NCBI GenBank assembly: GCA_049283795.1
Contig: JBAPWQ010000049.1
Location: 13,400-77,399 of the forward strand
DNA: 64,000 nucleotides
Source of the DNA: Desulfobacterales bacterium
Lineage (GTDB): Bacteria > Desulfobacterota > Desulfobacteria > Desulfobacterales > SG8-13
Direction of reading: 5' to 3'
Position numbers and translations under genes: made by a program. Position 1 is the stretch's first letter, and each line of letters opens with the position of its first letter. A model generated the notes under the pieces. It was not told the DNA's origin and ran no database searches. It saw only the letters and a program-made list of their open reading frames with translations. Below, piece by piece: positions 3,058 to 33,780 of the stretch.

Positions 3058-3185
3058 CGATTCCCCTGCACGGTTTTAGACTTCAAGATCGCAAAAATTA
3101 TACGATGACGCGCCTGGTTTGTCAAATTTGCGGAAGGGCCAAAACGGAGAGCCGGAGGAGCGAACGGGACCACCGGCCCGCTTTT

Positions 3186-4757
3186 TCACAGCCGGATTTC
3201 CACCGTGTCGCGCAAAAAATTCTTGACGTCGGCGATCGGTACCTCGCGACGGTGGAAGATGCCGGCCGCCAGGGCCGATTCGGCCGCGGTGGCGGTAAAT
3301 ACCTCCAGGAAGTGGTCTGGCCGACCGGCGCCGCTGGAGGCGATAACCGGAATCGAGACCGATTCCTTGACCGCCTGGATCAACTCGAGGTCGAAACCCA
3401 GCCCCGTGCCGTCCCGGTCGATGCAGTTAAGCAGGATTTCGCCGGCGCCCAGCTTTTCACAGGCCCGCGCCAGGGTCACGGCGTCGAGGTCCCGCCCTTC
3501 GCGGCCGCCTTTTATCGTGCATTGATACCAGCAATACCGCTCTCCGGCCGGGCCGGGAAAACGCGTTTCAATGACACGGTGGCGGACGGCGTCCGGTGAG
3601 GGGACATACACCCTGCGCGGATCGATGGAAATGACCACGGCCTGATTGCCGTAGACGGCGGCGATCTGCTCGATGGCGCTGCCGCCGGATTTTACACCGG
3701 ATGCCAGATACTCTTCCACAATGAGCACCGCATCACTGCCGATCGACACCTTGTCGGCTCCGGACCGGAAATACTCCGCCGCGACCTCGAGCGCCGAATA
3801 CGCGCGATTGTTCTTGTCGGTGTAGTTGCGGATGCCGCCGCCGATTGTCAACGGCACGAAGACCGTGCGGGAGGTTTGTTTCAGTACCTCGAGCATCGGC
3901 ATGTCTTCCAGCGGAAAATCACGGAAGCCGGTGATGTTGAGAAAGGTGATTTCATCGGCGCCCTCCTCATAGTAACGGCCGGCCAATGTGACCGGCCGGC
4001 CGAGATTGCGCACGTCTCCATCTTCCCGCACATCGTAGCGGTCGCCTTTCGTGACCACCAGATCGCCCTGGTCATTCGAGCGCACATCCAGGCAGGCGAT
4101 GATCCGTTTGGCCAGGCAGGTGCGGTTGGGGGTCCGGGGAGGCAGAAAAGGGCGCGAATCGGCGCCCAAAAAATTTTTCAGGAGGCGCAGCCCGGCGCGC
4201 CCGCTCTTTTCGGGGTGGAACTGGGTCGCGATGATGTTATCTTTTTGAATGGCGCTGACAAACCTGTCGCCGTAATCGGTGGTCGTCAGGACCAGCGCCG
4301 GGTCCTTTGGCGAAACGTAATAGGAATGGACGAAATAAAATTTTTCGTCACCGGCGAGCGAATCGAAGATTTTCGAGGGCTGTCGGATGGTGAGGCCGTT
4401 CCAGCCGATGTGCGGAACTGCCAGCGCATGGGTGAACCGTTTCACCACGCCCGGAATGACCCCCAGACCCCGGCAGTCCGGCGCTTCTTCACTGCTTTCG
4501 AAGAGCGCCTGCAAGCCGAGGCAAATGCCCAGAAACGGCCGGTTTGACTCAAGATAGGCCTTTAGCGGCTCCACGAGGCCTTTGTCGTGCAGGATCCGCA
4601 TCATGTTGCCGAAGGCCCCCACCCCCGGAAAAACCAGTTTCTCGGCCGCAAGGATGTCACCGGCCGCCGAAACGGTTTTGACGGTTTCCCCCAGGCTTTC
4701 AATGGCGTTGACAACGCTTCTGACGTTGCCGGCGCCGTAATCGAGCAATGTGATCAT
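3186..4757 (-). CDS. hisHF: Imidazole glycerol phosphate synthase, fused HisH (glutaminase) and HisF (cyclase)
   Basis: 523 aa. The N-terminal GATase has LLDYGAGNVRSV, GICLGLQ and QFHPEKS. The C-terminal HisF barrel has RIIACLDVR, GADEITFLNIT, PLTIGGGIR, YCWYQCTIKGGREGRD and IASSGAG. Confidence 0.9.
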   Translation of the reverse strand: MITLLDYGAGNVRSVVNAIESLGETVKTVSAAGDILAAEKLVFPGVGAFGNMMRILHDKGLVEPLKAYLESNRPFLGICLGLQALFESSEEAPDCRGLGVIPGVVKRFTHALAVPHIGWNGLTIRQPSKIFDSLAGDEKFYFVHSYYVSPKDPALVLTTTDYGDRFVSAIQKDNIIATQFHPEKSGRAGLRLLKNFLGADSRPFLPPRTPNRTCLAKRIIACLDVRSNDQGDLVVTKGDRYDVREDGDVRNLGRPVTLAGRYYEEGADEITFLNITGFRDFPLEDMPMLEVLKQTSRTVFVPLTIGGGIRNYTDKNNRAYSALEVAAEYFRSGADKVSIGSDAVLIVEEYLASGVKSGGSAIEQIAAVYGNQAVVISIDPRRVYVPSPDAVRHRVIETRFPGPAGERYCWYQCTIKGGREGRDLDAVTLARACEKLGAGEILLNCIDRDGTGLGFDLELIQAVKESVSIPVIASSGAGRPDHFLEVFTATAAESALAAGIFHRREVPIADVKNFLRDTVEIRL

Positions 4758-30091: not shown

Positions 30092-30574
30092 CGTCGCCTC
30101 CTGATCTGTTCGTTTGATTTGATTTCTCCGGAAGTCACAATGAACTCGATTGGGTCGGTTTTCTCCGGACGGCAAGCGCAAAAAACACTCCTTCCCAACA
30201 AACCTCACGGCCTTCTTCCGAAGTTCCTATGTGAGTCATAAGCTTAGCAAGACCGGTGCCAACAGGATAACCACCTGAGATGAAATGATATACTGATTTC
30301 GTTGACCTGCTCGCCGAACGCTCCATTCTAATATTTGAGCCCTGAATCTGCGGGCGATCGGGCCTGCGCCCCGCTAACAGACTGACCTGGCAGGATAAAA
30401 TCAACAGGGCCGTGACCAGAACTCCCGGGACTCAATTAGGGGGTATCGGAATTCGAAATTCCTTTTTCTCCGCCGGGTGCCAGCCGCGGGCACCGGCAAC
30501 AGGGTGTCATCGGTCGTGACCGAAGCCGTCAGGGCCTCAACGTTACACCGCACATCGACCCGCGCTCGCTCTTC

Positions 30575-30603
30575 TTGACTAACCGGCCCTCTTTTCCTAT
30601 AGT
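30575..30603 (+). promoter_or_regulatory. Near-consensus sigma-70 promoter
   Basis: TTGACT, a 17-nt spacer, then TATAGT. It lies about 175 nt upstream of the ATG at 30779. Confidence 0.45.
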
Positions 30604-30778
30604 GCCGACGAAATCGGGGACGCTTTCGATGGCCAAGGGAAGACGAGGTCGCCCTTTCGGGCATCGGGGCATACGGCCTGCAAGGCCGGATATATCTTTA
30701 ATTTTCGGGATGTGCCGATGTTTTCGCACCGGCGGGGGACGTCAGGCTGTGGGGCGATCGGCGAGAAGGAGGACAAGG

Positions 30779-31444
30779 ATGCTGAAATTGGGAGAAAAAG
30801 GCGCCATTCCCCAACGCGACAACGAAACCTACGCCATTGCGCCGCACATTCCCTGCGGGCTGGTAACGCCGGAACTGCTGCGACGAATCGCGGAAACGGC
30901 CGAGAAATACAATGCGCAGGCCATCAAGATCACCGGGGCGACCCGCATCGCGATAGTCGGCCTGAAGGAAGAGGATATCGACGGGGCCTGGGAGACGCTG
31001 CGCCTCGGTAAGGGAGCCGCCGTGGGCTTGTGCGTCCGCAGCGTCAGAACCTGCCCCGGCAATACCTACTGCAAGCTGGGCCAGCAGGATGCCATTAAAT
31101 TGGGGTTGAAATTGGACGAGGGCTATCACGGCAAGACTTTGCCGGGTAAATTCAAGATGGCCGTCTCCGGGTGCCATTTGAGCTGTTCCGAGTCCTGGGT
31201 GCGCGATATCGGCCTTATCGGCAAAAAAGACGGCTGGACACTGGTCATCGGCGGAAACGTCGGCGCAGATCCGCGGATCGCACAGGAGTGCGCCCATGGC
31301 CTGGATGACGACCGGGCGCTGGCCGTGATAGACAAGGTGGTCGGTTACTATCAGGAGAATGCAAAAAAAGGGGAGCGCCTGGGAAAGATGATCGACCGCC
31401 TCGGCCTGGAGGTATTTCGGCGGGTGGCCGAGAAAGTATCCTGA
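30779..31444 (+). CDS. Small nitrite/sulfite-reductase-family siroheme/[4Fe-4S] protein (low-molecular-weight assimilatory-type sulfite reductase-like)
   Basis: ATG at 30779 (AAGGAGGA RBS), giving 221 aa. Cys clusters CVRSVRTCPGNTYC and SGCHLSCSES. The size matches the ~218-aa Desulfovibrio low-MW sulfite reductase class. Confidence 0.75.
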   Translation: MLKLGEKGAIPQRDNETYAIAPHIPCGLVTPELLRRIAETAEKYNAQAIKITGATRIAIVGLKEEDIDGAWETLRLGKGAAVGLCVRSVRTCPGNTYCKLGQQDAIKLGLKLDEGYHGKTLPGKFKMAVSGCHLSCSESWVRDIGLIGKKDGWTLVIGGNVGADPRIAQECAHGLDDDRALAVIDKVVGYYQENAKKGERLGKMIDRLGLEVFRRVAEKVS

Positions 31445-31478
31445 TGAAGAAGAAGAAGGACCGAAACGCGGGTCAGCC

Positions 31479-31495
31479 TGATATAATGCTTGACA
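31479..31495 (+). promoter_or_regulatory. Extended -10 promoter (TGaTATAAT), overlapped downstream by a TTGACA hexamer
   Basis: TG-a-TATAAT at 31479..31487. TTGACA at 31490..31495 with GATCAT 17 nt downstream. Either could start a leader transcript. Confidence 0.35.
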
Positions 31496-31536
31496 GGCGC
31501 TGACGATTGGCCGATCATCAGGACTTAAAAAAAGAG

Positions 31537-31629
31537 ATGATCATCGTGGACATAACACCAACCAAGGTGAACTTTAACGGCTTCGGGCGCTTCTTTTTAT
31601 GCTTTAGAAGCGTCCATCCGGTTAAATGA
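31537..31629 (+). CDS. Candidate Phe-rich leader peptide (30 aa, or 27 aa from the GTG at 31546)
   Basis: MIIVDITPTKVNFNGFGRFFLCFRSVHPVK has 5 Phe in a 12-residue stretch. AAAGAG lies upstream. It sits immediately 5' of the terminator hairpins and the aro/phe fusion gene. Confidence 0.35.
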   Translation: MIIVDITPTKVNFNGFGRFFLCFRSVHPVK

Positions 31630-31647
31630 CGTAAACAGCTGAAAGCG

Positions 31648-31690
31648 CCCCCGGATGGATCGTGAACCGGTCTATCCGGGGGATTTTTTT
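31648..31690 (+). terminator. Intrinsic terminator 1 (candidate attenuator)
   Basis: cccccggat-N17-atccggggg followed by attttttt. Its 5' arm overlaps ccggatgga (31651..31659), which is perfectly complementary to tccatccgg (31613..31621) at the end of the leader ORF. Confidence 0.6.
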
Positions 31691-31692
31691 AG

Positions 31693-31722
31693 GGCCCCGG
31701 AATTGTTTCCGGGGCCTTTTTT
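31693..31722 (+). terminator. Intrinsic terminator 2
   Basis: ggccccggaa-ttgt-ttccggggcc (perfect 10 bp) followed by tttttt. Confidence 0.7.
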
Positions 31723-31836
31723 GTGTGCCCGCAGCAGGGCCCTCATACTTGGCGGCCTACCCGCACAATGGATGGGATAAAAGGGCCCGGCCGGGACGAC
31801 CATCAGTTTAAATGACCCGTGAAAGGAAAAAGAGCG

Positions 31837-33780
31837 ATGATACTCGAACTGACGCCCCACATCACCACCGCTGAAAAAACCGCGCTGGCAGCGATTCTAC
31901 AGGAACGGCACTGCGATGTGCGAGAGTTGCCGGACACCGATGTCCAGCGCATCGGTGTCATGAACCCGAAACGACACCCCGCGGAGTTTTTCAGGAACCT
32001 GCCCGGGGTGGCCCGAACGGTTGCCGTCGGCACGCCCTACAAACTCGTCGGCCGTCAGATGCACCCGCAGGATACGCTGGTTCGCGTTGGTGACGCGCTG
32101 GTCGGTGGCGACCGCCTGACGGTCATTGCCGGCCCGTGCGCCGTCGAAAGCCGCGCGCAGGCGCTCACGATCGCCCGCTGGGTCAAGAAGGCCGGTGCGG
32201 TCTTGTTCCGCGGCGGGGCTTTCAAACCGCGGACCTCGCCCTATTCATTTCAGGGGTTGGAAGAAGAGGGCTTGAAGATCCTGGCCGAAGTCCGTGACAC
32301 CTGCGGTCTGGGCGTCGTCACCGAGATGACCGCTCCGTCCCAGGCCGAAATCATGCTGAAATACGTGGACGTGGTTCAGGTCGGCGCCCGCAACATGCAG
32401 AACTTCGAGCTGCTCAAGGCGGTCGGCCGCATGGGCCTGCCGGTTCTCCTGAAGCGCGGCCTGTCCGGCACGATCGAAGAATGGCTCATGTCGGCGGAGT
32501 ACATCCTCTCCGAGGGCAATCCGCACGTCATGCTGTGCGAGCGCGGCATCCGCACCTTCGAGCCCTACACGCGCAACACCCTCGATTTGACCGCCATCCC
32601 GGTCCTGAGAAACATAACCCACCTGCCAATCATCATCGATCCGAGTCACGCCACCGGCAGCCGCGAAAAAGTCAGCCCCATGGCGCGGGCCGCCATTGCC
32701 GCCGGTGCCGACGGTCTGATGATCGAGGTTCATCACGACCCCGACCAGGCGCTTTCGGATGGCCCGCAGAGTTTGTATCCCCTGCAGTTCGGCCAACTGA
32801 TGCGAGACCTTTACGTCATCGCCCCGGTGGTCGGCAAGCAGCTCGACTTCGGCTATATTGAAAAGGCCCGGGCCGTCGAGACGCGCAGCCGCCATGCCAA
32901 CGGCGGCCGGCAGCGGGCGGCTTTCATGGGGCGTGTCGGCACCTTCAGCCACAAGGCCTGCCGGCAGTATTTCGGCGGGGAAGTCGCGGCCGTGCCAGTG
33001 CCTTCCTTCAGAGGCGTCTTCGAGGCCGTCAAAACCGATGCGGCCGATTTCGGCGTCATACCGCTGGAGAATTCACTCAGCGGCAGTATTCATGAAAACT
33101 ACGATTTTTTAAGGGAGTACGATGTGAAAATCATCGGAGAGATCGAGCTGCGCATCATGCATCATCTGATGGCGGCGCCCGGCGCGTCCATCGGCGGCAT
33201 CCGGCGCGTCCTGTCGCATCCGCAGGTGTTCGGCCAATGCCGCCAGTTTCTCGAACAGCACGACTGGGAACTGGTAGCGGTCGGCGATACCGCGGCGGCG
33301 GCCCAGCGGGTGGCCGACAGCGACGCGACCGGCGATGCCGCCATCGCTGGCCTGGTGGCCGCCCAGGAATACCATCTAGAAGTACTGGCGGAAAATATCG
33401 AAGCCAATCCGCGCAATTACACCCGTTTTGTCATTATCGGCAAGAGCCCTCTTCACAAGGGCTTCGCCGACAAGACCTCGCTCATCTGTTCGACCAGCAA
33501 CGAGCCCGGCGCCCTCTACGAGACGTTGAAGATTTTTGCCGAAAACCGCATCAACCTGATCAAGCTCGAGTCTCGACCGCTGCCGGGAGAACCCTGGCGC
33601 TGCATGTTTTACATGGACATCGAGGCCGACCTCGGCGCCGATGCTTTGAAACCCGTGCGCGAGCAGCTGGAGCAAAAGACCGACTTCCTGAAAATTCTCG
33701 GCACCTATGGCGAGGTGCCCGAAACCCTGCCGGGTGAAGGGTTAAGAGCACCTCGCGCGGCGGTTGCGTCGGCTGGGTGA
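31837..33780 (+). CDS. Fusion protein: type I-beta DAHP synthase (with an N-terminal ferredoxin-like regulatory domain), prephenate dehydratase and an ACT domain
   Basis: ATG at 31837 (AAAGGAAAAAGAG upstream), giving 647 aa. DAHPS motifs [30 protein letters not shown] and IIDPSHA. PDT/ACT motifs [27 protein letters not shown] and LIKLESRPL. Confidence 0.85.

Follow-up and report, generated by a model that had tools for sequence, protein, structure and literature searches.

A putative six-segment phenylalanine attenuator with two terminators in series upstream of a DAHP synthase-prephenate dehydratase gene in Desulfobacterales

The window analyzed here is a stretch of 64,000 nucleotides from the genome of a Desulfobacterales bacterium (contig JBAPWQ010000049.1). 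On its + strand, a gene at 31837..33780 encodes a fusion of a type I-beta DAHP synthase, a prephenate dehydratase and an ACT domain (Pfam DAHP_synth_1, 5.9e-81; PDT, 2e-63; ACT, 2.9e-05), which agrees with the aro/phe fusion that an earlier note on this DNA had placed there, and a sulfite/nitrite-reductase-like gene with NIR_SIR domains lies upstream (30575..31444). Between the two genes, a + strand open reading frame of 30 codons (ATG at 31537 to TGA at 31627-31629) encodes the leader peptide MIIVDITPTKVNFNGFGRFFLCFRSVHPVK, five of whose codons specify Phe (starting at 31573, 31582, 31591, 31594 and 31603). The Phe-rich frame described in the earlier note was thereby recovered, a short ORF enriched in codons for the amino acid made by the downstream gene. 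The Shine-Dalgarno sequence of ATG 31537 is poor, with AGAG abutting the ATG, and GTG 31546 offers an alternative start with better Shine-Dalgarno spacing. A TTA (Leu) codon occupies the site at which most relatives carry a third consecutive Phe codon.

Six RNA segments can be delineated on the + strand of this leader region. Segment 1 (GGGCGCTTCT, 31585..31594) contains the opening Phe codon of the run and pairs with 31606..31615 of segment 2 (AGAAGCGTCCATCCGG, 31606..31621) in a helix that spans the Phe codons and is present in the minimum free energy fold; it had been described as a 7-bp hairpin, which is correctly placed, and its full length is 10 bp. Nucleotides 31612..31621 of segment 2 can alternatively pair with 31651..31660 of segment 3 (31648..31662) as an antiterminator, in which the previously noticed 9-bp complementarity (tccatccgg, 31613..31621, with ccggatgga, 31651..31659) extends to 10 bp with one G.U pair. 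Segment 3 is also the 5' arm of terminator 1, the 3' arm being segment 4 (31668..31682), followed by T7 (31684..31690); the T-tailed terminator reported for 31648..31690 is present, with a stem of 15 bp rather than 9 bp. Segments 5 (31691..31702) and 6 (31707..31718) form the 12-bp stem of terminator 2, which ends in T6 (31717..31722), and 31695..31701 of segment 5 (CCCCGGA) can alternatively pair with 31675..31681 of segment 4 (TCCGGGG), which would give a second antiterminator. Both terminators were recovered by a terminator scan between the leader ORF and the gene, and terminator 2 ends 112 nt before the start codon. The predicted fold of 31500..31730 has an energy of -96.8 kcal/mol, compared with -66.3 ± 4.4 kcal/mol for shuffled sequences (z = -6.9). 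A cmscan of 30500..33000 against Rfam returned no amino-acid leader family, riboswitch or T-box at E values up to 10, and the weak sub-threshold matches were to sRNAs through the terminator hairpins only, the best being anti-hemB (22.9 bits against a gathering score of 49.5).

Upstream of the leader ORF, the promoter scan located a sigma-70-type promoter on the + strand at 31490..31518 (score 10 of 12), consisting of TTGACA (31490..31495), a 17-nt spacer and GATCAT (31513..31518), from which transcription would start near 31525. An exact TTGACA precedes the leader in 111 of 117 homologues, compared with 4 of 117 in a control window, and is followed 17 nt downstream by a TAnnnn box. The earlier note had assigned the promoter to an extended -10 element, TGaTATAAT, within the A/T-rich stretch TGATATAAT (31480..31488, + strand) directly 5' of the -35 box. 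That sequence exists, but it is absent from the promoter-scan listing, and relatives carry an AAATAAT-like sequence at the same position, then TTGACA. Because the relatives conserve TTGACA-N17-TAnnnn, we set TGaTATAAT aside as the main promoter; judged from sequence conservation, the TTGACA-N17-GATCAT pair is most likely the leader promoter, and TGATATAAT is more likely a UP-element-like sequence than an extended -10.

Full-length orthologues of the fusion protein were found in 13 of 40 related genomes, and eleven of these 13 loci carry the leader upstream, behind differing neighbor genes, with the common core GCTTCTTTTT..TTTAGAAGCGTCCATCCGG. With a covariance model derived from twelve sequences (R1), matches at E <= 0.001 were obtained in 78 of the 151 genomes sampled from the order, about 46 of these matches being strong and full-length, and matches at E <= 1e-6 in 11 of the 150 genomes sampled from the rest of the phylum. 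The exact 19-mer of segment 2 is present on 110 stretches of a species-representative genome collection, and the 80 titles listed for them nearly all name Desulfobacterales, Desulfobacteraceae, Desulfosalsimonadaceae, Desulfatibacillum, Desulfatiglandales or the cultured strain NaphS2 (L120). One of the 80, a contig from a metagenome-assembled genome labelled Verrucomicrobia (L100, VFJU01000179.1), carries the exact segment-2 core and is the sole title naming a phylum other than Proteobacteria or Thermodesulfobacteriota; a binning error is likely here, rather than transfer. More than 120 distinct sequences have the element upstream of DAHP synthase or prephenate dehydratase genes, and those with a name come almost all from Desulfobacterales and Desulfatiglandales. 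The Phe-rich ORF, the position of its stop and the two alternative pairings are retained in these homologues, which answers the earlier suggestion to look for the leader in orthologous upstream regions.

In nearly all homologous loci for which sufficient sequence was available, DAHP synthase and prephenate dehydratase-ACT genes, fused or separate, lie downstream of the leader. A sub-group of loci (L050, L059, L062, L066, L095 and L158) has a 136-151-residue ACT-pair protein (ACT_8, 1.9e-16) as the first gene after the leader, before DAHP synthase, and this protein may be a free-standing regulatory subunit. The window genome additionally holds, on other contigs, an unfused DAHP synthase (56% identity to its fused counterpart; G000:C272:6457-7428) and an unfused prephenate dehydratase (38%; G000:C480:9974-10813). 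R1 found just a single leader in this genome, and the unfused copies are therefore apparently not subject to the same attenuation.

The leader frame bears several marks of translation. All 123 distinct leaders keep an open frame across segments 1 and 2 and vary at their N-termini; in 112 of them the stop is placed exactly 5 nt past the CCGG of segment 2, and in 110 of them 4-5 Phe codons fall among the eight codons preceding segment 2. The distance from the stop to the start of segment 3 is 19-27 nt in most homologues. The loop between segments 1 and 2 measures 5, 8, 11, 14, 17 or 20 nt (2 mod 3) in 119 of 121 homologues, and its insertions and deletions therefore come in threes, while Trp codons (TGG) partly replace Phe in the loop of 14 of the 123 leaders. 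Every homologue listed has an in-frame start codon, in most cases preceded by a Shine-Dalgarno-like motif (judged by eye), and start, frame and stop position are thus kept in the relatives. Aromatic-for-aromatic swaps, triplet indels and a fixed stop would otherwise be hard to explain, which argues that the leader frame is read by ribosomes. The same observations weigh against an explanation in which the helices are real and a ligand (riboswitch), an RNA-binding protein or uncharged tRNA, not the ribosome, decides between them. Conservation is much stronger in the RNA scaffold than in the peptide N-terminus, and the U-rich loop could serve as a binding site, but the triplet indels, the fixed in-frame stop and the start codons speak for a ribosome, the triplets that take the place of Phe codons encode Trp or Tyr and are not other U-rich triplets, and Rfam gave no riboswitch or T-box match. 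We consider such a switch very unlikely. Within the peptide, amino-acid changes in the 'RSVHP' motif accompany changes that preserve pairing with segment 1, and since pairing is kept where residues change, it is the RNA rather than the peptide that is constrained there. A role for the 'RSVHP' peptide in nascent-chain arrest was considered and ruled out, as amino-acid changes in it track RNA pairing.

The pairing of the six segments was examined in two alignments, A2, comprising 36 homologues aligned to the model, and A4, comprising 100 further sequences. All five helices (1:2, 2:3, 3:4, 4:5 and 5:6) are 94-99% paired across homologues, and compensatory changes occur in four of the five, the exception being 2:3. 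The terminating fold (1:2 + 3:4 + 5:6) is 96.1% paired in A2, an alignment that was fitted to this fold and is hence biased towards it, with 17 pairs changed on both sides; that level was reached by none of 500 shuffles, and pairing in the slid controls was 54-58%. The alternative fold (2:3 + 4:5), to which A2 was not fitted, is 97.4% paired in A2 and 97.0% in A4 (slid controls 55-64%). Among the individual helices, 1:2 is 97.8% paired in A2, where 3 of its pairs differ on both sides, 3:4 is 94% paired (6 pairs changed on both sides), and 5:6 is 97.2% paired, with 8 of its 10 pairs changed on both sides. The first antiterminator, 2:3, is 98.9% paired in A2 and 99.0% in A4, where segment 2 cannot vary because the sequences were selected by exact match to it, compared with 55-64% when slid by one column, and its changes are mostly one-sided (wobble) rather than double. 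Helix 4:5 has two-sided changes at 2 pairs in A2 (95.2% paired) and at 4 pairs in A4 (94.1% paired), and two of its pairs in A2 alternate between C-G and U-A. A U-rich tail follows 3:4 in 97 of 121 homologues and 5:6 in 116 of 119. The two antiterminating helices are thus conserved and mutually exclusive with the terminators, a geometry that was checked by masked folding, and 4:5 supplies a second alternative helix that links the first switch to the distal terminator. As this helix between the 3' arm of terminator 1 and the 5' arm of terminator 2 is conserved, the layout corresponds to a six-segment relay of the kind seen in the his leader.

The conservation of 4:5 also bears on how the second hairpin is to be understood. 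In the earlier note, terminator 2 (31693..31722) was taken to look unconditional, and one outcome foreseen there was that both hairpins are simply terminators of the upstream gene. The pairing of segment 4 with segment 5, conserved and with compensatory changes, contradicts the first point, and because it makes the second terminator conditional, the scenario built on it does not apply. More broadly, one may propose that the hairpins only terminate transcripts of the gene at 30575..31444 and that the small ORF and the complementarities are due to chance. Transcripts of that gene probably do end at both hairpins in the window genome, and the scan finds no other terminator-like site on the + strand between its stop at 31444 and 31648. 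However, elsewhere the element sits behind unrelated genes (L010-L014 and many others) and always ahead of DAHP synthase or prephenate dehydratase genes, it has its own conserved promoter, its ORF is under codon-level constraints, helices 2:3 and 4:5 are conserved, and the second terminator lies directly next to the gene's ribosome-binding site in some genomes. These comparative data contradict the upstream-terminator scenario and leave it an extremely small probability.

A further explanation holds that the leader is an independent small gene, encoding a trans-acting sRNA or an 'FRSVHP' small protein, and that the aro/phe gene has its own promoter in 31725..31836. A promoter, a structured RNA of about 200 nt and a double terminator would suit a small gene, as would the weak Rfam similarity to sRNAs, which runs through the terminator hairpins only, and the 112 nt that separate terminator 2 from the start codon in the window would leave space for a promoter, but the promoter scan found no promoter-like site in 31725..31836. 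Several relatives, moreover, lack the space for a second promoter. In five loci (L010, L014, L176, L178 and L179), helix 3:4 has no U-tail and about 25 nt lie between the end of terminator 5:6 and the start codon; there is no room for a promoter, and the gene must therefore be expressed only via read-through of 5:6. Peptide conservation is confined to the stretches of paired RNA, residue changes there track the pairing, linkage and orientation to DAHP synthase or prephenate dehydratase are kept in nearly every case, and alternative helices would be pointless in a plain sRNA, all of which make an independent small gene highly improbable.

The reading we favor with considerable confidence, on the evidence of sequence comparison, is that the element is a ribosome-mediated, Phe-sensing transcription attenuator with six segments and two terminators in series. 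Ribosome-mediated Phe attenuation of the aro/phe gene, the central proposal of the earlier note, is borne out by the conserved ORF, Phe run, stop position and alternative pairings and by the presence of genes of the same pathway downstream. We infer the ribosome footprints, the kinetic order of folding and the response to Phe. Transcription would begin from TTGACA-N17-GATCAT, and a ribosome would translate the 30-codon leader as RNA polymerase advances. When Phe-tRNA is plentiful, the ribosome would reach the stop at 31627 and cover segment 2 and not segment 3, allowing 3:4 to form (terminator 1, U7); polymerases that escape would meet 5:6 (terminator 2, U6), and the majority of transcripts would end ahead of the gene. 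When no translation occurs, 1:2, 3:4 and 5:6 would all form and lead to termination. When Phe-tRNA is scarce, the ribosome would stall at the Phe codons 31591-31596 (or 31582), within segment 1, and the free segment 2 would pair with segment 3 upon its synthesis; segment 4, left without a partner, would pair with segment 5, and segment 6 would remain unpaired. Neither terminator would then form, and the DAHP synthase-prephenate dehydratase gene would be transcribed.

Folding calculations were consistent with part of this route. The helix energies were -15.2 (1:2), -15.5 (2:3), -28.5 (3:4), -23.5 (5:6) and about -6 to -8 kcal/mol (4:5), and masked folding of the whole leader, a check put forward in the earlier note, never yielded the antiterminator, both terminators being kept at equilibrium. 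Because equilibrium folds favor the terminators, read-through must be kinetic, like that of classical attenuators. Nascent transcripts of increasing length were therefore considered, with early helices held and a ribosome mask extending to 12 nt past the A-site Phe codon. When the mask lay over the Phe codons, 2:3 folded in nascent RNA extending to 31676; with 2:3 held, 4:5 formed once segment 5 was out and lasted until segment 6 was complete. When it was moved to the stop codon, 3:4 formed first and 5:6 followed. These modelled folds lend support to the kinetic route only, the order of folding being presumed.

Loss and variation of the element were also observed. Two loci from genomes of the same genus as the window (L008 in G005 and L009 in G014) are without the promoter, the leader and both terminators. 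The deletion is clean: it begins inside the -35 box and stops just short of the gene's Shine-Dalgarno site, with the junction inside the former -35 box between GGAAATTATTCTT and CAGTGAAAGG, and it brings the NIR_SIR gene and the ribosome-binding site of the fusion gene within about 45 nt of each other (about 3100..3500 in the L008 region; compare 31445..31836 in the window). The fusion gene in these two genomes is presumably co-transcribed with its neighbor and no longer attenuated. Other leaders carry Trp codons beside Phe codons in the loop of the first hairpin and are 17-18 codons long, for example MRGRFFFFWWFRSVHPVG and MGRFFCWWWFRSVHPGR; these variants (L073, L078, L087, L089, L098, L101, L107, L109, L110, L143, L149, L160 and L165) share the same scaffold upstream of the same kind of DAHP synthase-prephenate dehydratase fusion, and presumably sense both Phe and Trp. 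Weaker relatives scoring 40-74 bits were found in other orders of the phylum (L171-L181), with Tyr/Phe/Trp-rich leaders such as TYYFFWRFYFRSVCPVD and NNNYFYFWFYFN and aromatic runs such as YYFFWRFYF or YFYFWFYF, and in two of these distant relatives (L180 and L181) the downstream gene encodes a class I/II aminotransferase, not DAHP synthase. A second, paralogous and longer Phe leader, MNRDHLHNRFFGRFFFFRSVHPVT, was observed in one genome (L182 343..580; G030:C20), with matching hits at G113:C157 and G165:C8. It has a spacer of about 80 nt between segments 2 and 3 and is followed by a 147-residue protein, whose N-terminus resembles ACT-pair proteins, and then by a 267-codon ORF.

The mechanism itself is textbook and would not surprise a specialist. 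Beyond it, we lean towards regarding these leaders as an uncatalogued RNA family of Desulfobacterota, in which a constant six-segment scaffold with two serial conditional terminators is re-tuned by swapping the codon cassette of the first loop (Phe; Phe+Trp; Tyr/Phe/Trp) and controls DAHP synthase, prephenate dehydratase or aromatic aminotransferase genes. If this is true, the serial terminators would give much lower basal read-through than a single-terminator attenuator. The first committed aromatic step and the Phe branch step, joined in the fused protein, seem to be controlled by translational sensing of Phe-tRNA in many uncultured sulfate reducers, where attenuation would add to any allosteric control via the ACT domain. 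The family (R1, A2 and A4) could enter RNA catalogs, and ORFs of 25-30 codons followed by double terminators would no longer be misread as sRNAs or as the end of an upstream operon. Two conditional terminators together with natural Phe/Trp/Tyr swaps further offer a series for studying how the specificity and leakiness of attenuators evolve.

The earlier note knew of no described examples of leader-peptide attenuation in this lineage. That holds in part: PMC3082878 contains one sentence according to which Desulfobacterium autotrophicum may use a pheL, and no description of the structure, relay or distribution of the Desulfobacterota element was found in the papers searched. The D. autotrophicum pheL is probably the same element as the family in the window, the organism belonging to the same order as the named carriers; the text of that paper gives the statement without sequence, structure or distribution. 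A 2004 paper on regulons of delta-proteobacteria contains nothing on aromatic attenuators, and a TyrA paper cites only database-predicted attenuators, including one in a Desulfovibrio supraoperon.

Among the closest known systems, gamma-proteobacterial pheL-pheA (Rfam Phe_leader; surveyed in PMC3082878) likewise has a short Phe-rich leader between a promoter and a prephenate dehydratase gene, with a mutually exclusive terminator and antiterminator set by ribosome position. It differs in showing no sequence or structure homology, the window giving no match to an Rfam leader at E values up to 10, and in having four segments and one terminator, whereas the element in the window has six segments and two terminators. 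The gene in the window adds DAHP synthase and has no chorismate mutase domain. The leader peptides also differ in length, pheL having 15 codons and the family in the window about 25-30 codons with the Phe codons near the middle. In Corynebacterium glutamicum, the aroR leader upstream of aroF (DAHP synthase) mediates attenuation in response to Phe limitation (Neshat et al. 2014, as related in PMC11802643), and thus resembles the present element in that a leader peptide with aromatic codons attenuates a DAHP synthase operon. It belongs to Actinobacteria and has a Phe-Tyr-Phe motif, not a run of Phe, and no sequence relationship would be expected. In layout, the element resembles the his leader. 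The his leader of Salmonella and E. coli, in an account said to go back to Johnston et al. in 1980, reportedly alternates between A:B, C:D and E:F on the one hand and B:C and D:E on the other. Both are six-segment relays in which stalling frees the second segment and two successive alternative helices carry the signal to the distal terminator. The his leader responds to another amino acid and shares no homology with the family described here, and only its last hairpin is a terminator, whereas in the window and in the 97 relatives with a U-tail after 3:4 the penultimate hairpin is U-tailed as well, which would give two conditional terminators.
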